From Catajapyx aquilonaris (lineage: Eukaryota), in contig JYFJ02000337.1 in NCBI GenBank assembly GCA_000934665.2, positions 1 to 64,000 on the forward strand: DNA of 64,000 nucleotides, in the 5' to 3' direction. The translations under genes were made by a program, and so were the position numbers. Below, in pieces: positions 14,621 through 51,736 of this stretch; the stretch's first letter is position 1; every line of letters starts with the position of its first letter. The notes under the pieces were generated by a model. The model had not been told where the DNA came from and did no database searches. It worked only from the letters and a program-made list of their open reading frames with translations.

Positions 14621-15549
14621 ATGCCTCTGGCCAGCATAGCCAATGCACCGCTAAAGGTCCTCTTCTTCGTGCATCTCGTCCTGTCCGCATGGTAAGCTCC
14701 TGTGACATCGCAGGACATGTCATGCCTGCAGATTTGTACTTCAAGTGCCTCTGTGTCTGTGCGTAGCTTTAAGCGGACTACAAGACATGTACCATGAAAC
14801 ATGCCGTTAAGCGCAAAAATCTCAATTGCAATCGGCAGAAATTGATTATAAGGCCTGCAGAGCCAAATGTTAATTTATTTTCAGGGGAGCTCAGGGGGCA
14901 TGGAGCCCCGATTCGTACATGCTGTACAACCTCATCTTCCTCGGCACCGTAATATGGACCATGCATCACAAGGAGTCGGAAGAGCCAGTCATAATGGTAA
15001 CTAATCCACAACAAATTGAATGACGTGCTCATTAAAGTTGTATGTATTTCAGGCCGCTTGTACTGATTGCATCTGCCTGATGCTTGATGTCATAACCATT
15101 GCAGTGTACTTCCCTGCAAGCCAATGTGAGATTTTAGTGTACTTATGCTACTTACACATTCACTGATTCATGTTCATCTCCAGTCCCATCAGAGCGATTC
15201 AGTGTGGCCATGGCAATAATTAATATGCTTGGAAGAGCGGTCAGCATCCTGGTGCTGTACAAGATGTTTCAAGAGCGGGATGGAAACCTTGCTGCTATGG
15301 GATTGGGTGGAAACTTTGGAGACATCCTCGGTGAGTGCGAGTTGGTTGAAGCAACAGCTCTCGGTGCTAACATCCATCTTCCTCTGTTTCATGTAAGGAT
15401 CGAGTGGCCGCAGCCCATATGAAGATATAGACCGACCTGTGGCGCCTCAGGGGTTGGCTCAAGACACTGGAAGTCCCACCCACTTCTTTGATGGGAGTGG
15501 TGCTTTACCTGAGAACAAGTCTCCTCCACCTTACCAAGGCTTGAGCTAA
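14621..15549 (+). CDS. AGTRAP: AGTRAP/ATRAP-like membrane protein, copy 1 (184 aa, most ancestral-looking)
   Basis: Exons 14621-14691, 14885-14996, 15053-15125, 15184-15330, 15398-15549. Translation MPLASIANAPLKVLFFVHLVLSAWGAQGAWSPDSYMLYNLIFLGTVIWTMHHKESEEPVIM..LDVITIAVYFP..RFSVAMAIINMLGR..YKMFQERDG..SPYEDID..PPPYQGLS follows the AGTRAP pattern (LKV..H..L..WG, SY...N, LD....I..++P, RF...MAI, ERGG, Y..ID). Confidence 0.88.
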
Positions 15550-16814
15550 AAGCAAGAAACCCAAGTAACCACAATAGAGCAGACTTAGACAGAAACAGGA
15601 AATGAAGACTTGGAAATGGAAGACTATCTTGTCCACACCTCAAATGCCTTACAATAAATGGGGGGATAACTTTTAAACCACTTACAAGGTGAATCACGGC
15701 TTCGGACCTTTGAGCAGCTTACATACCAGTTTCCATAATAAGCAGGGTGTGCGTGTAATGTAAGTGCTTCAAGGTCCATTACAGATTCACCGCTGATGGC
15801 AAATTTGTTGCTGTGAAAAAAAATCCATGACTTGCTTACAATGTGTTGTTTCATACATTCCGTCGTATGTGAACCACTTAAAAGAAAGAAATCATATAAT
15901 ATATTCTAGTCAGAGTACAATTCTCCAAAGATATTGGGCATAAATGTGTAAAGACTTATATGCATATGTTAATTTTCATTGTTGTGCCAATAATTGTTGT
16001 GTGGACATGTTTTTTCTCTTTATGCTGATGTAACATTGCGCTGTGCATGGGACACAAATGTTACTATGCATTCCAGTGCATAAGGCACATTAAGCAATGC
16101 GTAACATAATAATTATGCAGCACAATAATACGTTGTGATGACTGCCATAAGATGTGTGATTTTTCAAATGGTTCCATGTACTAACCGTGTGCTTGAGGAG
16201 AAAATAAGTAAATACACACGTGGTGATGTGGTATGATGGAACCTCCTCTGAAATAATAAGACATGTTACTTGTACGCTCTTTAATCCAATTAAAGCCAAG
16301 TGCAGCATGGTTAGATTTTGTACATTTTGCTGCTTTTCATTCTCCGTTCTTCCCCAGAATGTTCGGCGATACCTGACTGTAGGAGAGAGACGTTCAGGAT
16401 AATCTGTCAGTCATTTTTCCCAATGTTAATGGATCTATCTAGATTGTTGTTAATCAATGGATAATTATTATTAGTCAAATTCACATGGGAGAATATGTTG
16501 CTTATTTCCTCGTGACCTTTCCATAAGAGTTTATACCCTGTGCCTAAGAATTCGTTAAATATGACCTAAGTCAGAGGGTTTACGAGGCGACTACAGGCCA
16601 TTGGCCCCTGCATCCCGGGCCCCACATTAAATATGACAGTAATGGAAGCGTTGGAAATATCCTAGTGACGAATATTTCTAGGCCTGTTGCAATTAATCTA
16701 ATATGATATCCATTTGGCTGATTAGATTTGACCACCTGTCCAACAGTCTATTGTCTGTATTTCGTTCTCTACGGCATTTGGTTTGTGTCCATTGGAATCT
16801 TTTTGTACAGCAAA

Positions 16815-18009
16815 ATGCCTCGAACCAGCATGACCAACGGAGGGGTGAAGATTTTGTTTTTCTTGCAACTCATCCTGTCTGCATGGTACTTGCTTGGTGA
16901 CACATAAATCTTGAAATACTAGTAGATATCAAATATTAACTAAGCCAAAACCACATCTACTTTGTCATTTTGATTATTTTATTTGTAGGGGAGCTCAAGG
17001 GCTATGGAGCCCCAATTCCTACATGTTGTACAGCCTTGTCTTCCTGTTCACTTTGCTATGGATTGTACATGATAAGGAGTCTACAGAGCCCATCGTATTG
17101 GTAACTACAAAATAATGCTACATACTTGTAATGCATAAGTGCTTTAAATTTTTACCTAAACTTCAAGTTTTAACATTATTGTTGATTTCAGGCCTTTTAC
17201 ACTGGTGGCATTTGTATCCTGCTTGATATTGTAGTGCTGTCAATGTATTACCCTTCAGGTCAAGGTGAGTTCAATTGTTGCATTGAAGTCCCCCTCATGT
17301 ATCTCAATCTAACACTAGGAAAAAATTAACATCAAGTGATCACTTTGAAAGTGTTGTAAACCTTCTCTAGAAAGAGCTGGGCTCTGACCAGTCTTATCCC
17401 CATCTTTTCTAGCTGCAATCATACATGCACCTCAAATAGACAGTAAAATGAAACCAAATATAATTTGGTGCCTTTTAAAGAACTAATTCAAATTCATATT
17501 CAGGCTTCACAGAGCAATTCAGCGCCATTACGGCAATATTCAACATGTTTATGAGAGGAGGCACCATCATGACACTGAGCAAAGTGATTCGTGAGCAGGA
17601 TGGAAATCTAGCAGCTCTGGGATTAGATGGAATTTGTGTGGACACTCCAGGTGAGTTTGAAATTGTTTGGAATGACAAATCTTTGCACAGTAAAATTTGG
17701 CTGCATATTACAATCGATCAACTTGTCAGTTACGGAATTTTCCTTCCGTCCTGGTGGATTTTCATTGCATTTTTGTTGCGATTTATGGGAAAGAGAACTG
17801 AACATTTTGTGACCTTTTCTAAACTGTGCACCAGTCACCATGATTTTTTTTCTTTGACAGTATCAAGTGCTTCAACCCCATATGAGAACAGAAGAGGCCC
17901 ACCTGTGCCACCACAGCCTCCGGCCACAGGACTCCCTGCCTACTCTTTTGATGCTGGCGGTCCCACACCTGACAGCAAACTGCCACCATCCTACCCTGGC
18001 TTCAACTAA
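16815..18009 (+). CDS. AGTRAP/ATRAP-like membrane protein, copy 2 (183 aa)
   Basis: Exons 16815-16885, 16989-17100, 17192-17264, 17504-17650, 17861-18009. The first four exon sizes (71/112/73/147 nt) are identical to copy 1. The frame is open and ends LPPSYPGFN*. Confidence 0.87.
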
Positions 18010-19023
18010 ATGAGAAAATAACTTAGCACTTTTCCTAAAAATTGAGTGACAAGCTGCAAAATCCATGGGACTTGAAAACTATATTTTTCAAGCGCTTGTA
18101 CTTACCACATGCTGCAAGTTGGAAGTAGTTGTCTGCAGATATTTTGATATTGGTAATTGCCTCTGAAATAATAAGGCAGATGGTGTTTTGTGACCACTTA
18201 TTACATAAAGTTCAATATATATTACACATTTGAAAATATTGATTATTGTCTTCATTTAATATACGTACAACTACCCCACTCTGGTCCCTACTGATCATTC
18301 AATTTTAAAAATTGCAACAGGCACATCCATGATCCATGTGTAACTTGATAATTATGCAGCACAATAATATGTTGTGATGACTGCCATAAGAGGTGTGATT
18401 TTTCAAACGGTTCCATGTACTTACCGTGTGGTTGAGGAGAAAGAGGTGAATGCACATGTGATGATGTGGTATGATGGAACCGCCTCTGAAATAATAAGAT
18501 ATGTTACTTATATTTTAACCCAATTAAAGCCAAGTGCAGCTCGGTTAGATTTTGTAAATTTCGCTTCTTTTCATTATCTGTACTTTCCCTGAATTTTCTG
18601 CGATATACCTGAGTTTGGGCAAGGCTGACTGTTAGCTAGAGAAGTTCTAGGTAATTGGTTAGTAATTTTTTCCCAGTGTTATATGGATCAGCCATTGGTC
18701 ATCAATGGAAAATTATTACAAGTCCAATGCACCCGAAAGAATGTGTTGCATATACTTCTTCATGAGCTGGCCATATGAATTTATAGGTCTACACTGTGCC
18801 TAAGAATTCATTAAAGATTGCAGTAATAGAAGAGTTGGAAATATTCAAGCGATGCATACCTGCATTATTACTAGGCCTGTTCTATTTAATCTTGCATCTC
18901 GATAAACATACACTGATTAGATTTGACAACTCGCTGAGTTTATTTTGTGCCTGTCATTGTATGCAATACGTTTGTTTTGTATTGCTTGCCATATTTTTGT
19001 GCAGCGGAATTGCTCAAGCCATC

Positions 19024-20279
19024 ATGGCCAACGGAGAACTGAAGATCATATTTTTCTTGCAACTCATCCTGTCTGCATGGTCTGTTTAGCGACACATATT
19101 TTTGCTGCATTAATCTGTCCATAGTCCATATTCTGTCAATCCATTTGGCACGTTACTTTTGGCCTGATTCATAAGTCTTATCAATAAAATACACATAGAT
19201 ATACCGTAAAATACTGATTAAGCCACATCCGCTTCATCAATTTGATTTATTTGTAGGGGTGCTCAAGGGCTATGGAGCCCAAATTCGTACATGTTCTACA
19301 GCCTCATCTTCCTCTTCACTCTGCTATGGATCATACATGAGAAGGAGTCTCAAGAGCCGCTTGCAATGGTAATGACAAACCATCAAATTCACTAACATCC
19401 TTGAAATGCACAATTGCTTTAAATTTTCACCTAATCACCATGTTGGTATACTTTTTTGTCAATTTCAGGGCATTTACACCGGTGGCATCTGCATCCTGCT
19501 TGATATCATAGTGCTGTCGATGTATTACCCATCAGGTCAAAGTGAGGCGTATAGTTCAATTATTGCCACAATCAAGTCCTCTTTTTGCTCTCTTATATTA
19601 GTGGAAAAAAATTTAGCATTTCTCTGAAAGTGATATCTTTTGCTCCACTTTCCCCCCTATAATACTACATTCACCACAAAATGACAGTAAAATGTAACAA
19701 TATTTAATTTGATGCCTTTAAAAAAATCCTTTAATGAATAAAGAACATTTACTAATTCACATTCATGTTCAGGCTTCACAGAGCAATTCAGTGCTATTAT
19801 GGCAATATTCAACATGTTTGTGAGAGGAGGCGCCATCATGAAGCTGAGCAAAGTGATTCGCGAGAAGTATGGAAACCTAGCAGCTCTGGGATTAGATGGC
19901 ACTTCAGCAGACACTCCGGGTGAGTTTGTTTCTCATGTTGGGTCATACTTGTTAGTACAGTAAAACCTGGCTGCATCTGACTTATCCGTTACGAAATTTG
20001 GCTTCCGTCCTGGTGGATAAATTTCATTGCACCTTGCACATTATGGAAAACAAAATATGGAATGTTTTGTCTGCTTTTCCTACACTGTGCACTTAATTGT
20101 TACCATGATTTTTCTATGCAGCAGGTTCAAATACTTCCGCTGGGTATGACAACACAGGCGGCCCAACTGCAGAAAGTGAGGTGCCGCCTCAGGCCACCGG
20201 CCTCCCTGCCTATCCTTTTGATGCTGGCGGTCCCACACCCACCAACAAACTGCCACCATCCTACCCTGGCTTCAACTAA
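19024..20279 (+). CDS. AGTRAP/ATRAP-like membrane protein, copy 3 (about 180 aa)
   Basis: Exons 19024-19079, 19257-19368, 19469-19541, 19773-19919, 20125(or 20122)-20279. Internal exons are again 112/73/147 nt. The frame is open, very similar to copy 2, and ends LPPSYPGFN*. Confidence 0.85.
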
Positions 20280-20621
20280 ATGAGAATAAGGCGAATCGCA
20301 ATTTTCACAAAGATTAAAAGACTAATCCAGCTATAGCAACAAAATAATTTGTGCAAGCTATATATTTATCAAGGTTGTAATAATATAATTTAAATTAATT
20401 AAAGTTAAACGATACGTCACATGACTTGTGTTATATATGAGACCCAATTATAAATTGCAACCAATGAAATGAAAATAAATATTTAAAAAAGTTAACTTGT
20501 AATATTGTGAATTGCGGAGATTACAATTTAAAAATGTATGAAGTTTAAACTTGCAATATAACAGCCCCCCAACAGTTACCAATGATTCAGGCTTATAAAA
20601 TTAGAAAAAAAAAGTAAAAAG

Positions 20622-20694
20622 TGTTTCCGCCCGGGATCGAACCGGGGACCTTGCGCGTGTGAGGCGCACGTGATAACCACTACACTACGGAAAC
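20622..20694 (-). tRNA. tRNA-Val, anticodon CAC
   Basis: Reverse complement GTTTCCGTAGTGTAGTGGTTATCACGTGCGCCTCACACGCGCAAGGTCCCCGGTTCGATCCCGGGCGGAAACA (73 nt) folds as a canonical cloverleaf. A downstream T-run Pol III terminator corresponds to the + strand A-run at 20616-20620. Confidence 0.97.
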
Positions 20695-21046
20695 CTTTCA
20701 TGTTGAGAAGCCGGTTTATTTAGTCCTTTATGCCACCCAGTCTCTCCCCCCATGCGCAACAGAGTTTGTGCAAAATAAACAGCTGGATTTTATCGCATTC
20801 AATGCACACTGATAGTCCTCATTAAGACTTGTGCACTAATTGCGTTTAATTACCTCCTGATGAATGTACGCCGTGAGTCCGTGACCAATTTTCCAATCAG
20901 ACCTGATGATGCCGGATAATAAGCCGTCCGGGTCGGTCCGGGTGTAAAATAATAATTCGGCTCATTAGCCCAGCTGGTCCATCGCACCAGCATCACACAG
21001 AGATGTTACAATAATAAGAAGAAAAAATATTGGAAAGAAAAAAGCT

Positions 21047-21120
21047 TGGCCCGCATGGGGTTCGAACCCACGACCTTCGCGTTATCAGCACGACGCTCTA
21101 GCCAACTGAGCTAACGGGCC
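21047..21120 (-). tRNA. tRNA-Ile, anticodon GAT (atypical for eukaryotes)
   Basis: Reverse complement GGCCCGTTAGCTCAGTTGGCTAGAGCGTCGTGCTGATAACGCGAAGGTCGTGGGTTCGAACCCCATGCGGGCCA (74 nt). All stems pair, the anticodon loop is CT-GAT-AA, the A and B boxes are intact, and a T6 terminator lies 3 nt downstream (21038-21043). Confidence 0.95.
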
Positions 21121-21409
21121 ACGCGATTAAATGGGGAGGAAAATGACCCACTAGTTGTACAGGAGGACACGTGCTCCTCTGTGTACGAAGGTCTTGTTGT
21201 GTAGTTCACACATATGTTCAGAAAGTAATCATTGCAAAATGTTGCCGTGAAAACCATGAGCATGCAGGATGCAGCAGTACTGTACAAATCCTGTGTAAAA
21301 CATGTACATTCCAGAAGCTGAAATTAATATGGGATAACTACAATGCAACATTGTTACAATTCCACATTTATTCACATACAATTCAGTACAAAATCTCCAC
21401 GTCCCTATT

Positions 21410-22623
21410 TCACACCACTTTGGCCACCCAGTTCTTGAGCGAGTCAATGTCCAGTTCCTTCCCAGCACTCCCCTCTTCAAACTCCACCTTTATTGGCAGC
21501 ACGTGCGCAAATTCAAAGTCCTTTCCACGCTTGCCCAGGAATGTGTTGTTGTTGGCAGACTCACCCATGCTCTGGAGCTGGCTTGCCTTTGTCACACGAA
21601 GCATGTTTCTGAAATGCGCAAGAATGGGTATCAAATGAATGTGAAACATCCAATGAGTGATATGGACTACGAAGTGGTTCACATTTGATAGCACTCACAA
21701 TAGCAATTATCATATTCTGTTGTTCCACATTGCCCAAGGTATTATACACTCGTAATAAAATGAATTGCAGATTGATTGGGAAAATACTTTTCATCAGCAA
21801 CTTTTGCACACATTTACATTTTGCATCAATAACTCATAACGTAACAGCATAACCCATAACGAGTGTGATTCCATTCCAAATGAAGCTACACCTTACATTT
21901 CTTTCTCCAGCATGCTCTTGATGACTTGGCAACCTTTGGCCATAGTCAGATCCTGCTTGTTGCAGAACACCAGCACAGGAATACTGTTGGAGGCGACATC
22001 CGAATCGGTCAAGATGGTGTACAGGAGTTCAGCCACATCCTTCACCTTCTTCTGGAAGGTCACGCTGTCCACAACAAACACCAATCCACGGCAGGTGGCC
22101 TTGAACTGGTTGAAGAAGCGAGATGCCAACCGCTCATTGCCCGGGATGTCATGCACAGTCAACGTGCCCTGTTGAGAGGGATAAGTGTGCATTACTGTTC
22201 ACTGAAATGAGCTGAAGTTTATCAACGCACACTGCGCACCTTCTTATGACAAGTGTAGAATCCGGTGTTTTCCTTCATGGAGGTGAAGCTGTCCACATGC
22301 TTCTCGTGTGTCAGCTGTGAGAATAGAAGAGTCTTCCCCGACTCGCTCATGCCCACAAGAAGCAAAGCCTGTCTCTTGATCCTTCTCCTGATGGCCAATA
22401 TTACAACTGGAATGGGATTTTGCAACACATGTTAATATGTGCAATGTACCAAAGCATATGTTGTACGGACAAGGCCGGATTCCTCACATGTGGTGATGAG
22501 TATGACGATGATGGCGACCAGGAGACCGATCAGCTGTGGGTCGATCTCCTTCAGCCATCCCCAAACCGAGTCGGCCTCTTGGGTCGTCCTCTTCAATATT
22601 TTCTTCGCTGTTTTTTCCGCCAT
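21410..22623 (-). CDS. SRPRB: Signal recognition particle receptor beta subunit (257 aa)
   Basis: Exons 22623-22488, 22406-22240, 22168-21897, 21608-21410 with consistent phase. N-terminal TM anchor (LIGLLVAIIVILITTFVILAI), P-loop GMSESGKT, DIPG switch, VFVVDS, NKQD, and the SR-beta-typical LEKEI/N.LRVTK segment. AATAAA on the minus strand at 21367-21372. Confidence 0.95.
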
Positions 22624-23058
22624 GTTGGCAGTGATGGAAGCAGTGTGGACAGATCGTCACGATAACAATTAAAAACAGGACTACCAATCGGGTACTTAAT
22701 ATTTACACACATTTTAACTAAATACAAGTACATATTTTAATCATAATATTTAAACATTTTAGTGAAAAATATTATTAGTGGTTTGGTATGTCGCCGGCAG
22801 GTGGCATGAGCGAGGTTGTGCACTCTAGTGACATCTGGCGAGAATTTGTCAAACTTTGCTCAGCACCCGGGATAATTGGAAAGTCCTCAAAACAATAAAT
22901 TAGCTACAATTACACTATGATTGTTTCTCATACATTTTTGACCATCTAAGGAGAAACAAAAGGCCTACGGCTCCCCAAAAATTAATTACCTCGCCAATGA
23001 AAGGCCACTGAATTTTTAATTAGCTCGCGGCCAAGATGAAGTGCGGACACATACTGTG

Positions 23059-23060
<2 letters not shown>

Positions 23061-23094
<34 letters not shown>

Positions 23095-23107
23095 ATGTTG
23101 TCGCAGC

Positions 23108-23184
<77 letters not shown>
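23061..23184. repeat. Compound microsatellite (CTA)11 plus (TAT)~25
   Basis: Directly visible. It explains the poly-I/poly-L/poly-Y ORFs in the track. Confidence 0.97.
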
Positions 23185-24358
23185 GGGTGTTTGTACAGCC
23201 TTCACCTGCTGAGGGTAGCATCGCAGTCATCGCCAATGGGTTGAACCGGTCATTACTCAGCCTCCTACAACCTGGCATTAAAAGCATATGCCACAAAGGC
23301 GGCGTCTTCATGCTTCCATTAGGAGACCCGTCCAATGTTTTATTTTCTTCCTCCTCAAAAATTGAGAACGTGCCAGAACCCACCCCGCCCACTACCGCTT
23401 AACCATTAATCACCCCTTTTGCTCCTGATTTAAAAATAACTATAATAATCGCGCCGCCTCTAAACTCCCTCGGTTTTTAATCGCACCCCCAAGTTTGACC
23501 TGCAACAACCTGTACATACAAAAAAATTTGCCCTTTAGCTCACGGCTCCCCCATCATTTATCAACATCACCTCACAAAAATGGCTACCTTCGATTTTGCA
23601 TATAATTAAGCAGCGAGGATAATTGGATTTAAACCAGTAATTAGCCGAATCCGTTGGGTGCAAGTGAAAGAGAGAGATCTGCATGTGCTTATGCAAATTG
23701 GTAAGATTACAGCCAGAAATGAGGATTTAATCACTTAGGGAGTCTTTCTTTGTCCAACATTTTTTTGTATGTTGGGACGGTTAGGGCGTGCATGCTTCGG
23801 GATTTTTATACCCGCAAAAATGCCGTGCATAGGTGGAAAAAGGTGGGGTGGGTTACGCCATCAGTTAGGGTCAAAAAGCGTGACAAATTTCCTGGGTCAT
23901 CCATGTGTCAAGTCTCTCTTTCCCCCTCTCTCAGTTCTCTGGTGCATTCCACGCCTTTTTTATAGGCTTATGTTACTTTTTTTTCTCTCTCAGGCCACAA
24001 ATCTCCATCTGAATCTGCTCGGCAGTGCATCTATGCGTGCAGCGTCGGGGGGAAAATAAAAAAATAGCTGGCAGGTTACATAAAAAATATATATACAAAA
24101 GGACAAAAGTGGGTGGAGGACAGAGGGGGGCAGGGAGAGACAATTCGTTCCACTTTATGACAACTAACGAGCCAACCCTTTGATTCAAAAATAACATTTT
24201 ATATACAACTGGCTCTGATTGAAATGCTAACCGATTTTTGGCACCAACAAGCTGCTTATTAGCACTAACATTATAGTGATTATAACAATTATAACGGATA
24301 TATCATATAATTATGTAACCTATATAACGAATATTAATAAGTTATGAATGGTATCCAT

Positions 24359-24525
24359 TGGTATGATATATTAGTGACAAATTGGTATGATATATTAGTG
24401 ACAAAATGGTATGATATATTAGTGACAAAATGGTATGATATATTAGTGACAAAATGGTATGATATATTAGTGACAAAATGGTATGATATATTAGTGACAA
24501 AATGGTATGATATATTAGTGACAAA
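24359..24525. repeat. Minisatellite, 24-bp unit x7 (TGGTATGATATATTAGTGACAAAA)
   Basis: Units start at 24359, 24383, 24407, 24431, 24455, 24479 and 24503. They are nearly identical and have no spacers. Confidence 0.97.
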
Positions 24526-24611
24526 TGTTATAATTATATGTTATAAACGCTACATATTGTCTAATTAATGCAATATTAGTTTATTATTGTTGTGATATAG
24601 TTTGTTATAAA

Positions 24612-24858: not shown

Positions 24859-27800
24859 TAATTATTATTAGTATTAATATATTACAACCAATGCACTACG
24901 GTATGTCATAGGCCTACCATTTATCATAGGCCTATTAGTTTATCGATGTTATGATACAGGCCTATCCTACAGTTGTAGGCCTATTAGGTAATTGCTTATA
25001 TACCGTAAATTATTAGTTAATTGCAAGATGTTTATCCATCTTGGTTAATTGTTATGATACACTGCAACTTATTTGTTAGAATTGTTGTGACACATATTAG
25101 TTATAATAACTATAATTGATATTAGTATACTGTAATAAGCAGCTTGTTAATGCCAAAAATCCGTTTCAGTTAGACAACCTCTCTGAATTGTGTATAAGCT
25201 TTTGGCACTCTGATTGCGTGGGGATGACCAGAGGGTACCGAGGGCGGACACCGTGTGTTCTGGGCTACTACCTGCGACGCTACCGCATCTCTTTTGCGTA
25301 TTCATGAATATACCTGCCAGCCGCTTTTTTTTAACGGTTTCCTGCCAGGGGGTCATCAGGCGTGAGGGCAGCACGAGGAGGAGTAGGCTACATGGTTATA
25401 ATAATGGCCCCTACTCTCCTTTTTTGGGTCACTCGAAGTTGGGGCCTCACCTTGCCTAATGGCTACCTTATGACCCAGATTGACCGTTGATTATATGCCT
25501 ACGACCTGTATACGTGGGATGTCCAATTGCTGAGGGGGGGAGGACCGGATCAGGGTTCAAAGGTAGTTCAATCTCATTTCGAGACCCTCCCATAGTTTAG
25601 GGCTTGGCGAAACTAATGGGTGAAGCCCCTCCTATATAGGGTTTGCTTTTTTATCTGGTGGTGTTCAATTTGTTACAGCACATCCTGAGGCTCGGTTGGT
25701 TTTTGCGTTGGACTTTTAACAACCTGATGCCTATTTTGCAGGAGGACAATATTGCTTGCATGTAACTTCTTCACTACAAAATATGACCCAAAGATTCTGA
25801 TCCAGCACGCGCCAGCATCTATACGCATCTAAACGGCCATCTTTGGCAAGCCCCCAGCATCCAGCACCATATGAGGACATGCGACATACCTTCGACCCCC
25901 CGCAGACTCCAACAGGTGGACCTTCAAGGCTCCGAATCAATCCCTCTGACCACCTGGTGATGACAGAGCAACTGGTTATAAGTTTATAAATGATCAAAGA
26001 GTGAGTAAATACCATGATGGCCATTTGTCCTCTACTATAAAACAAATGGAGGCCGCCATCTTTGCAGCATGTATACCGGGCCATCAATTGAAACTGTACG
26101 ATTAGAAAAAGGGCAATAAAAATCACCGCAGGAGCTGTTTGTACTTTTGTTGTCTTTCTGGAATTACAAGAGTGTCTAGGTAGTAAACTTGGATGTAAGT
26201 AGCTTTGCCGATTGATATGGTCCATTGGGAAAGCGGTGCTGATTGTTTCTCAACCTAACATGGGATAAATATTGATGAGAAGTTGCCGCTTACACCCCTC
26301 CGAGAAAAACAGGCCATATGCATGTAATTACCTGGATGGTAACGGGAACTATCAATGTTACACACGATTTAGGCGGTCAAGTTTTTACCAGAAAAATATA
26401 AAAGTTGTACCGCTATGTGCCGAAAAACGGTCTTAAATTGAGACTACCCAGTATGTAAATTGGGAAAAACTAATTGGTCTATCACTTGTCAGATAGCTCC
26501 GTTTATTTCCTATGCAATCAGTCGATTCCATATGTTTTTTGGTCGTTTTTTTTCTCAAGGCTGCGCACAAATGATTACCATCAAATCTTGTGATTGGGGT
26601 CACGATATTTGTCAGCCTTGAAGAATTTCCTTCACGGGTTGGGGGATGTCGGTTGAAAGCTGATGAATCAATCACAGCCTTGCCAGGTATGACCCTCAAA
26701 AGTATAGCCGACGCATGCCCCAAGATGGCGGCTAAACATCAGAAGAAAGCAAAGTGGAAGTGAGGATGTTTGACTACACTTTTATGGACTTTTGGAGTCT
26801 CGGTTCCAAGAGCTAACAGAGGGCCAGAAAAGGCCTTAGAAGAGAGGGCAAATATGCCCAGCAAATGAAACGCGATTTGCTCCGACATGATCTCTAAATA
26901 GGCTCGTAATCACAGTTCAAACAAAGCCATCGCGGAGGTTCCTTCTGCCACTTGGCCAAATAGGTGATAGTGCAAGCTAAAACCTTGTTCAAATAAGACG
27001 GATCTATTCACTAAAAGAATATACAAGGCAGTAGTGTGCAGATAGGGAGGATGCGCCATCTAGGTGGCACAATGGGCAATTCTGGCTGAAATTCTAGATA
27101 TGTAATAGGATTATCAACCTTCAGAGTTCATGACACGTCATGACATCACTAGGAGCAGGACAATAAGCATTTCTTAGTTGAAAAGGGAGCCTACCACCCA
27201 TCGAGAAGCTCTTTCTAATGAAGGTGGCCAATTTCTGGTCCCGCGCCAAAAAGCGCATTATTCCATATTTCCTAAGAAAAGGTCAGAAAAGGGGGCCGTG
27301 TGGGCCTTGAGGGGGTTTTTATAAAAGGGGACAGAGGACAGGTTGACAGGGCAGTACTAGAGGGGAGGACATTCAGAAGCACGAGATGCTGACGACTGCC
27401 TGATGAAAGAGGAGAAAACTTTTGGAGAGAGAGAGAGAAAAAAAAGAAGGAACAGCTGGCTAAAGGATCACTTTTGAGGTTACCCAAATAACCAAAAGGT
27501 TAATCGATTCCAAAATCAGCTCAAATTTCACAAAAACCGTACACAACCACCAAGGACCTTTGAGGTGCTGAGCAATCTATTGTTGATGACCTTCTCTCAG
27601 TAGGCTGGCACAATGATTGAATTTAACAATATTTGCAGGTAGTTCAAGGTGGCAGTCCGACCAAGGTACAAAATATTATTAAATTTTCAGTTACACATAC
27701 AGTGAACTATATTTCCCAGTCACACAAAGGACTGTTGACAGTGACAGGCGCATCTAAAGTAAACGAAATGTCTTAGGAATTGGGCTCAGGAAATCCCTTC

Positions 27801-28781
27801 AGACAGATTGCTGTAGTTTTTTCCTATTTTCTACCCAATTCCTCACCCCAAAAAAATCGGGGCTGGCACACAAAAAAAATGCCTGACCCTTGTTTGCCGA
27901 TGCGACAAGATTAAGCCATTCTGGAAATGGTGGAGATTTCTTTCGAAATAAAAAAAAGATCCTTTAAAAAATCTCCTGCCGGTTGGCTTCCTCCTTAAGA
28001 GTTGTCCCGTGTCAAAGACCTGGAGGGCAACCTTACAAAAGCGACCTTTTCAACCCAAAAAAATTCCACCTGCATCTTACCCCCAAATTTTTGGTAGAAA
28101 CCGACCAGTTATGCCACCAGAAAAAGAGGTTGGGTCGCACGACCCCCACCCACAAACCTTTCCACAAAATCGAAGGAGAAAAAAAACTAGTGGTATAATA
28201 ATCGAGGCTTTTCTATTCAACGTGAGTTTTTCAGGCGCCGAAAACGTGTCTATCAAATTTCATCAAAGCCTGGTTTTGTAAGGGTGAATTTTGGAACCAA
28301 GCTCGATTGCGCTACCAAAATATCCCTCCAGAATGGCCCATGGGGGATGAGTAAGCAGCTGGGGTTGGACTAAATTGAGCGACTTTTTTGTTGGAAAAAA
28401 AAAATTGGGAACCTAGAAAAAAAAAGAAGAGATAAAGGAAGAAGTCTCTTTCTTGACCCGCCTCAATGCGGCGATTGACAGTCATCCTGTTTCTTGGTTT
28501 TGGGGGAAAATACATGGAAACCTTGCACCCTTGGTTTATAAAAAGGAGGAACAAGCAAAACCACTTTACAGCCCTGCAGAAGAAGCCTGGAAATGTAAAA
28601 GAAGGGAGGGTTTTAATTGCGTGTGTCAGGACTGAGTAATGTCATGGAGTAAAGTGGGTCGTGTGATGTAATCAAAATTTAAACCAGTGTTGTCAAGTTC
28701 GTATGCAAACGCAGATGAATGCTTCTGAATTGTTGCTTATGAATAAATGTTAATTTTACATACGACCAGTAACATCATGTC

Positions 28782-28871
28782 TGTTTGTCCGACCTGATAG
28801 TGTCGCTATCTCTTGCACGACCTGAAGGTGGCAGGAGTGTGCAGAGGGATTATGCGTCATCTATGCATGAA
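28782..28871 (+). repeat. Dispersed ~90-bp imperfect-hairpin repeat, copy B
   Basis: Aligns with 33345-33434 (TGTTTGTCC..CTGATAGT..GCACG.CCTGA..GTGGCAGGAG.GTGCAGAG..GGA..TGCG..ATCT.TGCATGAA). A partial copy lies at about 27027-27062. Confidence 0.75.
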
Positions 28872-31800
28872 AATTAGTACTAAGTGGCAAATCGGCAGGC
28901 AATCTCATCAAAGTTGTTTGATTGTCACTGTCATACTGTTTTGCCAAATTTTGGCAACAGGTTCACTAGTTTAAGGTTACACTCTATGCCCGTCGTAGTT
29001 CCCACGCAATTTGTAATTCTCAACTTTTATTACACCTAAGGTCCAGTTCAGCAGGACTGTTTCGTGTTTTGTGTAAATAAGGGCAGGCAAGAGTCCACTT
29101 TGAGACCCATTCAGAGCACAGGTGTTGTATCCTCGGTACCTAACATGGCCAAGTCAAAGGTCGGCGTGACAGACATGAATGGCCTTAGCGGAAGTGGCCC
29201 ATAAAACTGTGGAAAAGTACCTGCTAGGACAGCTGCAAAGCCCAGTTTGGCTGATTGAGCCCACCTAATCTCCTCTTCTCCACTGATTTTCCCTCGTTTT
29301 TTTCGGTTTCTTTTTAAAGGTTCTTCTTGGAACGGGGAGGTGGAGAGAATCGAGGCTTGTTTCCTGCTTCTATTGCCCCCTTCGCCTTTATTCTTACGCC
29401 TCGTTACGTCGCCTGATGGTTCTTTAAAAACGGGTACGGCGTATAGTATACCAGACCCCCCTCCAAACCACCAGTCAAAGGACATGGGTCATGTCGTCTT
29501 GCCACACGCTTCATTTCACCCCTGCAGATTCCACGTCCATCATTGGAGGGGATAACTGTACCTTTATTGTTGGGGATCCAATCTAACGGGATTGTGTAGA
29601 TATTAGATAAGTGTGTGGATTCATAACGATTTCCTTCCAAGGAAAAATTCCATAATGATGATAGCACCCACACCAGCTGTGTCGCAAAAATATCCGCACA
29701 TGAATAACACGCATGTCAAAATTATACCAGCACATGAAACATGTGGGCCGAACCTTTTCACACTGAAATCCTACAAACATGCGATTTCGCACGCATGAAT
29801 CAACGCATTAGCACTGCAACCTTGAGGTCCTTTGGCAACGTGAGTCTGAAGCCCAGCACAAATTATGAGACGGCCCATACCAACGCGTCTACACCTGGCT
29901 AATAAATTAATAAGTGCTGAGAAAACATTCTAGAAAATGGAAGGACATTTGAGCATCAGGAAAAGTAAACGTCGTAATAAATTACTGACTCTTCTCTACT
30001 GGAGCCACAACAAACAAGTCCTTGAGGATGACCCATCCATCCAGATCATGGATCCCCATGTGGTCTGAGGTTGGTTTGACCAAAAGGCATCTATTACACT
30101 CCTCTACGACTATTTATTGCCCACCCAAAAAGAGGACCGGCTTAATTGGGGCTGGGTACAAGATTTGGAGGCCATGTTTAGGCACGTACCGGTTGTCATA
30201 AGGTGGCGACGACGACTAATGTAGACATCTATGATGGTTAATTATTCCATCTAGCCTAGCAGGAGTCTTCGAGAGACGTGGTGTCACGCGAGGGCCATAT
30301 TTTGAGGATGAGCTGTTTGGCTATTAATTGCTGCCGCTTTACACTTGCTTAAAGAATGGGCCAGATTGTTAATAAAATTGTAGTAATTGCACACTTTACA
30401 TGGACGTCGCCATGTTTGGTCCAACTTTTCCGTCTGTCTACCGTAATTAGTAGGCTCGAACAAACTTGAAATATAGTGCACCATCGCTGTGACTTGAGTC
30501 CGGAATGTGAGTAATCAATGACAGACACATCTAGTCACGTCTTCAGTCACGTCAACGCCAGAAAATGTTCGGGTCTTCCCCCTACCTCCATCTTGGATTT
30601 CTCCCAAAGGTGATTAATGGCTGGTCCCCATAGCCCAGCTGCCTGGTAAAGCCCCTCTGGGATAATTAAAGACACCCAAAGCAACAAGATCCGTCAACTG
30701 CAGATCTCCCTTCTCCCAACAACGGGGGACCACTAGCTGCCTTCTAAGACACACGCATTCTTCTTCCTACTCACCCGACCGTGAGACCCTTCCTCTTGAA
30801 ATCCTCAGAAGTGCGCTTGGTGGTCAGAAGGCCAACATTAAAAAGCAGACACCCGGCCCCAAAAATGGCTGCTGAGGAGATGAATAGGTCATAGACAGCT
30901 GGAAAAGGGAACACGACGAGAAAACCAGACCATTCCTCTCTTTTTTTCCGGGAATATGTTTACACACACCGGTAGGGGCTTCTGACTATTTATTTTCCTG
31001 GAAACCTCTGGAGGCGATACAGGAGTAGTGTAGTTCCTGCGAATGTCTGCAAACTTGACCTTGCAACTAGGGGTAAGATGAGAGGACCCCCGACACTTTT
31101 GGAGCGCTTGAGTGAAACCAGGAGAACCTTTTGCCGGCGGATGGGTTGGGTCCAAAGGAAGGGTGTCATGAAACTCAATGGCTTCTTTGTCTCGCCGCAC
31201 TGGAGGACGACTTCCAATTGGGAACCCCCCTAATTGGCCTGAGGGGCGGGTTGCCGCCAAAAACCCGAAGGGTGCTTTGGTAGGAGAAATGAAAAAAGGA
31301 AATAAGTACACCCCAGGGGTCGCCTTTGGGAGTACTCAGCCGCCGGATTTACACCGGAAGTGTTTGGCTTAGAAATGTCAGAAGGTTGAGTCACACTTTG
31401 GAGTCAATGGAGTCTTGGAAAACGATGTTGTCATCAGTAAACAATGCTGTGGTGCCACTGTTGGCAATGGCTTCAAAAGTGCGAATATTTGAAAGATATC
31501 CATCATGGAATGCACTAACAAGCCATATAAACAGTAGGTGGACAGCATACTAAAGGGTAGCCAATCATGCATGTTCTGGTGAAATCACATCCCATTTTTT
31601 TATTCACTAGCCAGAAGCAGACGCCGAACAAAGTATATTGCCTTGCAAACTCATCGATCAACCTTTCCACATCTGCATAATCACACACCTTGTGGGCTGC
31701 ACTTCGTCACTGGCCACCCTCAAAAAAAGTCCATAACCATCCACCCCATCAGTCATTGAAGCGAATTAATTGTCTCTGGCTTGTCGTGTACCTGTGATAA

Positions 31801-50395: not shown

Positions 50396-51736
50396 ATGTG
50401 TACCGGTGATACCATGGGGCCGGAGAATGTTGCGAGGAAGTCTAGCGAGACTAGGAGGGTGAGTTGACAATTCTTATAGAGCATTTAAAAAGAAACTGCA
50501 AGCCGTTTCGTAGTTAAATGACATCAGCTGAATACATTATTTTCATACAAATTTGTTCGAATTGTTAGGTGCTTCTGAAGTCTATATGAAATTTTTCTAC
50601 TATTTCAGAGCAACAAGCCGATTATGGAGAAGCGGCGAAGGGCGCGGATTAACAACTGCTTGAACGAGCTAAAAAATCTGATCCTGGATGCTCTCAAGAA
50701 GGACGTAAGTACAGTTTTTGTGGTGTACGCAGCAGGTATTTTTATGATGGGAACAAAAAGCGCGCTTCAAGGTCTCCTTAGAAAACGCTTTGCTTAAAAA
50801 AACAATTTCGCAGTTTGGCGCTAATACTCCCCCAGCTTTAATTAAATTACATGCGCTATTAGCGTGTCACTGACGTTGCCGGTGGTCAAAACGGAAGACC
50901 ATACCATGCGACAGCATCTTAGAACAGGTGTCGCATTCCAGATGATATCGCGACTCCAGCGATGCCATCTGAGTCTTGAAGGACTTGGGTAATGACAGGA
51001 TTGTATTCCCCAAAGTAGTCACGTGTGTCATTGAAGATTTATGGGGTGCGCCCTTATTGAAGGTGGTGCTCAGGTACTCACGATTTTCGTCACGCCTACT
51101 TGTTGCTGTTGCTCGAAGAAAAAAACAATGTATCGCGTGCAAAACCTAACCCTTTTTGTACCATTCCAGCCAGCGCGACACTCCAAGCTGGAGAAGGCGG
51201 ACATCCTGGAGATGACCGTCAAGCACCTAGAGAACATCCAGAGGCAGACGATGGCCATGGCTATTGCGGCTGACCCCAACGTGGTCAACAAGTACAGGGC
51301 CGGATTCAACGAGTGCGTCAACGAGGTGGCCCGATTCCTGGGCAAAGTGGACAACCTGAACCCGCAGGTCAAGCAGCGACTTCTGGGTCATCTGGCCAAC
51401 TGCATCAACGGCGCTTCTTCGCCTCCCGAACCAGTCCAGGTACAGCTACCGACCATCAACGTGGTGTCCGAACCGACCGGAGTCATCGGGAGCCTCCAGC
51501 TGGTACCGACCCAGTTGGCCAACGGTGACATCGCGTATGTGGTGCCAGCGCCGAAGGAACCAGAGCCCAAACCGGTGCCACCAACAGCCGTGGTGGCTCC
51601 GGTGGTGCATACCCCAAAACCCGAACCATGCGGGTTGGACCTACGTACCGAGGCCACCAAAGAAGCGGCGGGGTTGAAGGTGGAACCCGAGCCAGAAGAG
51701 GAGGACGGACAGGATAAGATGTGGAGGCCGTGGTGA
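50396..51736 (+). CDS. h: Hairy (HES-family bHLH-Orange repressor with WRPW), about 241 aa
   Basis: Exons 50396-50458 ([21 protein letters not shown]; alternative ATG at 50414), 50609-50704 ([32 protein letters not shown]) and 51170-51736 ([20 protein letters not shown]..Orange domain [40 protein letters not shown]). Both introns are phase 0. The residues RRSNK, INNC, LILDA, RHSK, AADP and CVNEV.RF match hairy better than deadpan. Confidence 0.93.

Follow-up and report, generated by a model that had tools for sequence, protein, structure and literature searches.

An intact tRNA-Ile gene with a GAU anticodon in an invertebrate nuclear sequence, a rare exception to the eukaryotic rule with known precedents

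We found an intact tRNA-Ile gene with the anticodon GAU in a contiguous stretch of 64,000 nucleotides of assembled animal DNA (hereafter the window), and the presence of this gene in the assembled sequence is confirmed. Eukaryotes as a rule do without this anticodon; an invertebrate nuclear tRNA-Ile(GAU) departs from the rule in a way that is rare but has precedents. We consider it fairly probable that the gene is genuine and probably working, a nuclear Pol III gene for a minor isoacceptor that would bypass ADAT editing and read AUC and AUU. The features of the locus are collected in Table 1.

Table 1. Coordinates of the tRNA-Ile(GAU) gene and of the features that surround it in the window.
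Feature	Position	Strand	Basis or remark
tRNA-Ile(GAU) gene, 74 nt, canonical cloverleaf	21047..21120	minus	Rfam RF00005, ARAGORN and stem parse
Anticodon G34 A35 U36	21084..21086	minus (plus strand ATC)	direct reading; G34 is the complement of C at 21086
T6 run, putative Pol III terminator, starting 3 nt past discriminator A73, with a second T run after it	21038..21043	minus	sequence
tRNA-Val(CAC) gene	20622..20694	minus	Rfam, 64.8 bits, E = 8.5e-12; ARAGORN, Val cac
T5 and T9 runs terminating tRNA-Val	20605..20620	minus	downstream in RNA sense: C, TTTTT, AC, TTTTTTTTT
Frame with last SRPRB coding exon	21410..21694	minus	ends ...NWVAKVV, then stop
SRPRB GTPase-core exon	21893..22198	minus	Pfam PF09439, E = 3.5e-28, 98.6 bits; PDB SR-beta 2fh5_B, E = 1.8e-24
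C-terminal frame of third AGTRAP-like copy	20109..20279	plus	ends ...PPSYPGFN, then stop, as does the copy at 17479-18009

The Rfam tRNA model RF00005 matched 21047-21120 on the minus strand with 63.0 bits (gathering score 29, E = 2.7e-11), covering model positions 1-71 of 71, and no non-standard pair was flagged in the alignment. This score is close to the 64.8 bits that the same model gave to the ordinary tRNA-Val neighbour. ARAGORN, run on the whole 64 kb, predicted two minus-strand tRNA genes, Val(cac) at 20621-20694 and Ile(gat) at 21046-21121. Parsing of the gene as a class I tRNA gave 21 stem pairs, every one of them standard: 18 are Watson-Crick and three G-U. The anticodon loop reads CTGATAA, which places C32, U33, G34, A35, U36, A37 and A38; G18 and G19 fall in the D loop, the T loop has the canonical sequence TTCGAAC, and A73 serves as the discriminator. 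The free-energy fold came near the cloverleaf with the D arm slipped, a modest gain over shuffled sequence (z = -2.10; 4 of 200 shuffles folded as well), and the covariance score is the stronger evidence for the gene.

The A-box region (positions 8-19) is TAGCTCAGTTGG and the B-box region (positions 52-62) is GGTTCGAACCC, both judged against the standard consensus sequences of the two boxes. Pol III terminates at runs of at least four T. Such runs are absent from within the gene, and on its 3' side, in RNA sense, the sequence continues AGC, TTTTTT, C, TTT. Both boxes, the T run on the 3' side and the lack of any internal T4 give the gene the make-up of a Pol III type-2 gene.

The gene ends were also inspected for the marks of a retro-copy. 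Neither a CCA nor an A tail is encoded at the gene end, and no direct repeats hug the gene; the only bracketing pair is a 10-mer lying ~300 nt off on each side, which is at chance level. A 28-mer of the gene, searched through the 64 kb with up to 3 mismatches, matched only itself. A permissive RF00005 scan of both strands of the 64 kb (E up to 1) matched only tRNA-Val and tRNA-Ile, so the window holds no decayed copies and no tRNA-like or tRNA-derived repeats. A retro-copied tRNA pseudogene or a tRNA-derived SINE was ruled out, because CCA, A tail, hugging target-site duplication and multiple copies are all missing. These results agree with an earlier sequence-only reading, which had placed a tRNA-Ile with a GAT anticodon at plus-strand positions 21084-21086, had described four paired stems, intact A and B boxes and an oligo-T terminator with no encoded CCA and no poly-A, and had concluded that the gene does not look like a decayed pseudogene; the sequence bears no mark of decay. 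A scan for bacterial-type promoters and terminators, which is not applicable to a eukaryote, gave zero terminator-like sites. An 11-nt stretch at 21186-21196, located 66-76 nt upstream, shows 91% complementarity with 21069-21079 (variable loop and T stem of the gene), about chance level by a rough count.

A single wrong base would produce the entire finding. Position 34 might have been misassembled or miscalled, or might be heterozygous, the true or common allele being AAT; we hold this account to be very improbable. Errors of a single base are uncommon in sequence that is non-repetitive and ~60% GC. Independent contigs from four runs of one sample contained 0.96 of the 31-mers sampled from 20400-21500, which argues weakly in the same direction, since the assembly may itself derive from that sample and the value does not single out 21086. 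Nineteen runs of other organisms, one biofilm metagenome included, contained 0.04-0.05 of the words of this interval and carry no evidential weight.

The isotype was judged from the body of the tRNA by comparison with human tRNA-Ile(GAU), whose sequence was taken from the capture probes given in bioRxiv 10.1101/2021.04.22.440519 and aligned by eye, with no tool. By this alignment 60 of 72 aligned positions are identical. The agreement is concentrated in the 5' half, with 32 of 34 positions identical and one additional base in the D loop of the window tRNA; the 3' half agrees at 28 of 38 positions, and the window tRNA has one additional base in the variable loop. All six of the six stem pairs that differ from the human tRNA are still paired, three through a double change (5-68, 28-42 and 50-64) and three as G-U (7-66, 30-40 and 49-65), a pattern that suggests a tRNA under structural constraint. 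The match to the human tRNA, with its stem pairs kept, therefore establishes isoleucine as the isotype: in this by-eye comparison the body resembles that of a known tRNA-Ile and not that of another isotype mutated to GAT. The more specific proposal of the sequence-only reading, that the body is that of an animal tRNA-Ile(AAT), is supported indirectly, through the likeness of the two human tRNAs, which are described as too similar for a northern probe specific to tRNA-Ile(GAU) (bioRxiv 10.1101/2021.04.22.440519).

The human gene (GtRNAdb tRNA-Ile-GAT) is the nearest counterpart, in that both are nuclear, eukaryote-type tRNA-Ile genes with G34, and the human one coexists with Ile(AAU) and Ile(UAU). 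The human gene is expressed and belongs to a vertebrate, whereas the window gene is known from sequence alone and belongs to an invertebrate. The T loops also differ, CTCGACT in the human probe-derived sequence and the canonical TTCGAAC in the window, as do the T stems. Because T loop and T stem are clearly unlike the human ones, the two are not called orthologues, and with 28 of 38 positions shared in the 3' half no orthologue of the human tRNA-Ile-GAT genes was assigned. The window gene may have arisen independently of the human gene or may have diverged deeply from it; either fits. Bacterial and organellar tRNA-Ile(GAU) share the anticodon and the expected codons with it. In contrast to these, the window tRNA has a body of eukaryote-cytosolic type, near that of human Ile(GAU), and its gene sits between intron-containing nuclear animal genes. 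The 28-mer of the gene, which stops short of position 34, had zero exact matches in 185,579 prokaryotic genomes and zero in viral contigs, a weak test since it counts exact matches only.

How unusual such a gene is depends on the eukaryotic rule and its exceptions. One review lists the anticodon GAU as "missing" in eukaryotes (PMC8007984, 2021), and tRNAs with I34 are described as essential because genes for G34 isoacceptors are lacking (PMC8266599; PMC8072771), the reason for the replacement of G34 being called "unexplained" (PMC8266599). Exceptions are nevertheless in print. Section 10 of PMC5372738 catalogues predicted G34 genes that break the rule of G34 sparing in large animal tRNA gene sets (cat, zebrafish, cow and others), gives their significance as unknown and calls for expression assays; tRNA-Ile-GAT in particular has been predicted in a tunicate, Didemnum vexillum (PMC5006418), and also in Schistosoma mansoni (PMC2770079). 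The sequence-only reading had held that G34 is avoided in eukaryotic nuclear genomes. As a textbook rule this stands (PMC8007984, PMC8266599), but the rarity was overstated, for exceptions are catalogued in these sources and the human gene is expressed. With exceptions in print and a functional human gene, the window gene joins a class that is small but already known. Like the catalogued cases, it is a predicted, high-scoring G34 tRNA in a codon box served by A34/I34. Many of those cases lie in very large, repeat-derived tRNA sets, whereas the window gene is one of an isolated pair in unique intergenic sequence, with no tRNA-like repeats in the 64 kb.

Several reports that mention similar tRNAs were set aside as not comparable: the Ile-GAT of PMC13534245 and of PMC10763252 is a mitochondrial tRNA, that of PMC13376629 belongs to what is apparently a bacterial tRNA set, and bioRxiv 10.64898/2026.05.15.725136 deals with bacterial A34 tRNAs. 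The literature searched yielded no report on Ile-GAT in the host organism.

Work on the yeast isoleucyl-tRNA synthetase (IleRS) bears on how a tRNA-Ile with G34 would be charged. In that enzyme one conserved arginine is described as recognising G34, I34, U34 and pseudouridine-34, with A34 poorly accommodated; the arginine contacts the 6-carbonyl common to G and I, and the enzyme reportedly charges a GAU tRNA with roughly the efficiency seen for its native IAU tRNA (PMC11685878). It further contacts C32, U33, A35, U36 and U20 and needs G18-U55 and G19-C56 (PMC11685878). The window tRNA carries C32, U33, G34, A35, U36, G18, G19, T55 and C56, which match the yeast determinants as reported. At the remaining contact, U20, the window tRNA has C and then T behind G19; its D loop of 9 nt can be numbered in more than one way, and the presence of U20 hinges on that choice. 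According to an independent review table, I34 alone raised kcat 12-fold over the unmodified transcript (PMC11301382). Since yeast IleRS reads G34 like I34, a gene-encoded G34 would supply what ADAT must otherwise create.

The following route from gene to codon would be consistent with these data. The A and B boxes would recruit TFIIIC and Pol III, and T6 would end transcription. After end processing and CCA addition, the tRNA would be charged by the cytosolic isoleucyl-tRNA synthetase, as the yeast data suggest, the enzyme reading the 6-carbonyl common to G34 and I34 together with A35/U36 and C32/U33. On the ribosome, G34 would pair with C by Watson-Crick pairing and with U by wobble, so that the tRNA would read AUC and AUU, not AUA. 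No deamination by ADAT2/3 would be needed for tRNA-Ile(GAU), and a role as ADAT2/ADAT3 substrate is ruled out for this tRNA by its position 34, which is G and not A. Ordinary Ile(AAU to IAU) and Ile(UAU) genes are presumably present at other sites of the genome, and the tRNA would work alongside them. The canonical tRNA-Ile(AAU), which becomes IAU through ADAT2/ADAT3, is of the same isotype and, as far as this can be judged, has the same kind of body; it would share the synthetase determinants, I34 and G34 being read alike by yeast IleRS as reported. Isoleucine codons in the three securely coding stretches of the window (322 codons) comprise 9 ATC, 3 ATT and 1 ATA, which fits such decoding but is anecdotal.

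Data from human cells show that a tRNA of this kind can take part in translation. Human tRNA-Ile(GAU) has been measured, overexpressed and depleted (bioRxiv 10.1101/2021.04.22.440519), and after its depletion AUC-rich genes are reported to be translated less efficiently (bioRxiv 10.64898/2026.10.08.757597). G34 tRNAs reconstructed for four-codon boxes miscoded and were toxic in human cells, except where positions 32 and 38 could form a Watson-Crick pair (PMC7293025); C32 and A38 of the window tRNA cannot form such a pair. That study did not include isoleucine ("Ile" occurs zero times in its text), and its argument concerns G/C-rich codon-anticodon pairs, whereas the GAU anticodon is AU-rich.

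The sequence-only reading had offered three accounts of G34, a tolerated A34G allele, a hard-wiring of the edited state in the genome and lineage-specific decoding, each of which would fit the present data. As to its age, G34 may be old and conserved in the lineage, or may be recent, derived by an A34G change from a copy of Ile(AAU). If it is recent, the gene could be a neutral variant of one Ile(AAU) copy, silent, poorly expressed or inconsequential, possibly a polymorphism, and intact because it is too young to have decayed. We regard this as rather unlikely. The change from AAT to GAT takes a single transition, multi-copy tRNA families tolerate variants, and the significance of the catalogued exceptions is given as "unknown" (PMC5372738). 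The 3' half, identical to human Ile(GAU) at only 28 of 38 positions by eye, argues against a single shared ancient GAU lineage and allows a local origin. The flanks, however, are those of a working gene, with a clean T6 run and an intact tRNA gene next door, and the sequence shows no sign of decay. Judging from the yeast enzyme, moreover, charging of a tRNA with G34 should be no worse than that of one with I34 (PMC11685878); once transcribed it would join translation, so a variant of no consequence would have to be silent.

The tRNA-Val(CAC) gene lies 352 nt downstream of tRNA-Ile on the same strand, in line with the ordinary tRNA-Val that had been noted 350 bp away, and the adjacent gene, which had been taken for SRPRB, was identified as such by its Pfam match (E = 3.5e-28). 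SRPRB is a housekeeping gene, and its stop codon (21410-21412) lies 290 nt upstream of the 5' end of tRNA-Ile. An AATAAA read directly on the minus strand at 21372-21367, past this stop, may be the SRPRB poly(A) signal, in which case the tRNA-Ile gene probably lies beyond the SRPRB poly(A) site. The third AGTRAP-like copy, with its stop at 20277-20279, is convergent with SRPRB, and both tRNA genes lie in the ~1.1 kb between the two stops. This AGTRAP-like gene occurs three times in tandem on the plus strand (15138-20283), with a Pfam AGTRAP match on the first copy and similar exons at ~17479-18009 and 19742-20283; the C termini that end in PPSYPGFN form a PPxY-type motif.

tRNA genes can act as chromatin boundaries. 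As both tRNA genes fill the interval between two convergent stops, the pair might serve mainly outside translation, as a boundary or roadblock bound by Pol III/TFIIIC or as a source of tRNA fragments, and its anticodon would then be free to drift. We find this extremely improbable; a boundary role neither requires nor predicts a perfect cloverleaf of 21 pairs together with an anticodon loop of isoleucine type.

By the coding sequences of the window, the host belongs to the bilaterian invertebrates, and none of the SRPRB and HES matches comes from a close relative. Pfam matches were found in three of the 48 frames scanned: AGTRAP (15138-15422), SRPRB (21893-22198) and Hairy-Orange/bHLH (51035-51736). 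Among the eight matches to the SRPRB exon from 80 candidates, the best full-length relatives were those of a brachiopod (60% identity), a mantis (59%), a fly (52%) and a gastropod (51%), and mouse SR-beta is identical to the window SRPRB at ~45 of 92 positions by eye. Relatives of the HES-like exon, among the best 120 of 541, came from insects, amphioxus, a brachiopod and fish, with ~40-56% identity over most of the alignment. On these two exons and the comparison with mouse SR-beta a vertebrate origin was rejected. The compactness of the SRPRB gene is one further cue against a vertebrate host. In the frame at 21893-22198 (minus), residues 10-101, the 92 amino acids that align to mouse SR-beta, are uninterrupted, and the other SRPRB frames are no more than a few hundred bases away.

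On the widest reading, tRNA-Ile(GAU) would be no sporadic accident but an old, conserved minor isoacceptor of metazoans, retained from invertebrates to humans for the ADAT-independent reading of AUC and AUU that it gives particular mRNAs, with the SRPRB-adjacent gene a fixed and expressed locus in its lineage. We consider this improbable. If it were true, the textbook absence of GAU from eukaryotes would not hold for animals generally. Metagenome contigs contained zero exact matches to the 28-mer of the gene, which stops short of position 34. They also yielded no orthologous locus when searched via the SRPRB exon: five of 259 pattern matches encode a relative, at 39-54% identity, too distant for synteny.

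As a single case known from its sequence only, the window gene adds one more entry to the catalogue and no new principle. Each intact G34 gene is nonetheless a natural test of whether G34 is harmful in eukaryotic translation, and isoleucine is the sole box in which human cells have been shown to use a G34 isoacceptor, as described in bioRxiv 10.1101/2021.04.22.440519 and 10.64898/2026.10.08.757597. An invertebrate copy that proved conserved and expressed would place the origin of this isoacceptor deep within the animals and would offer a second system in which to ask what purpose an ADAT-independent reader of AUC serves.

Other features of the window were noted in passing. A Hairy/HES-type bHLH-Orange repressor is represented by its last exon (51170-51736, plus strand), whose frame ends in WRPW, with a Hairy_orange match at E = 8.3e-17; the HLH match at this gene fell just below the cut-off (20.2 against 20.7 bits) because an intron splits the domain. 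A stretch of many overlapping frames of 100-170 amino acids on both strands with no Pfam match (25700-31400) is possibly degraded repeat or mobile-element sequence. Nearer to SRPRB, a long trinucleotide microsatellite at ~23040-23250 reads as poly-Ile, poly-Leu or poly-Tyr depending on the frame, and a minisatellite with a 21-nt unit at ~24334-24568 gives 7-residue peptide repeats in several frames.
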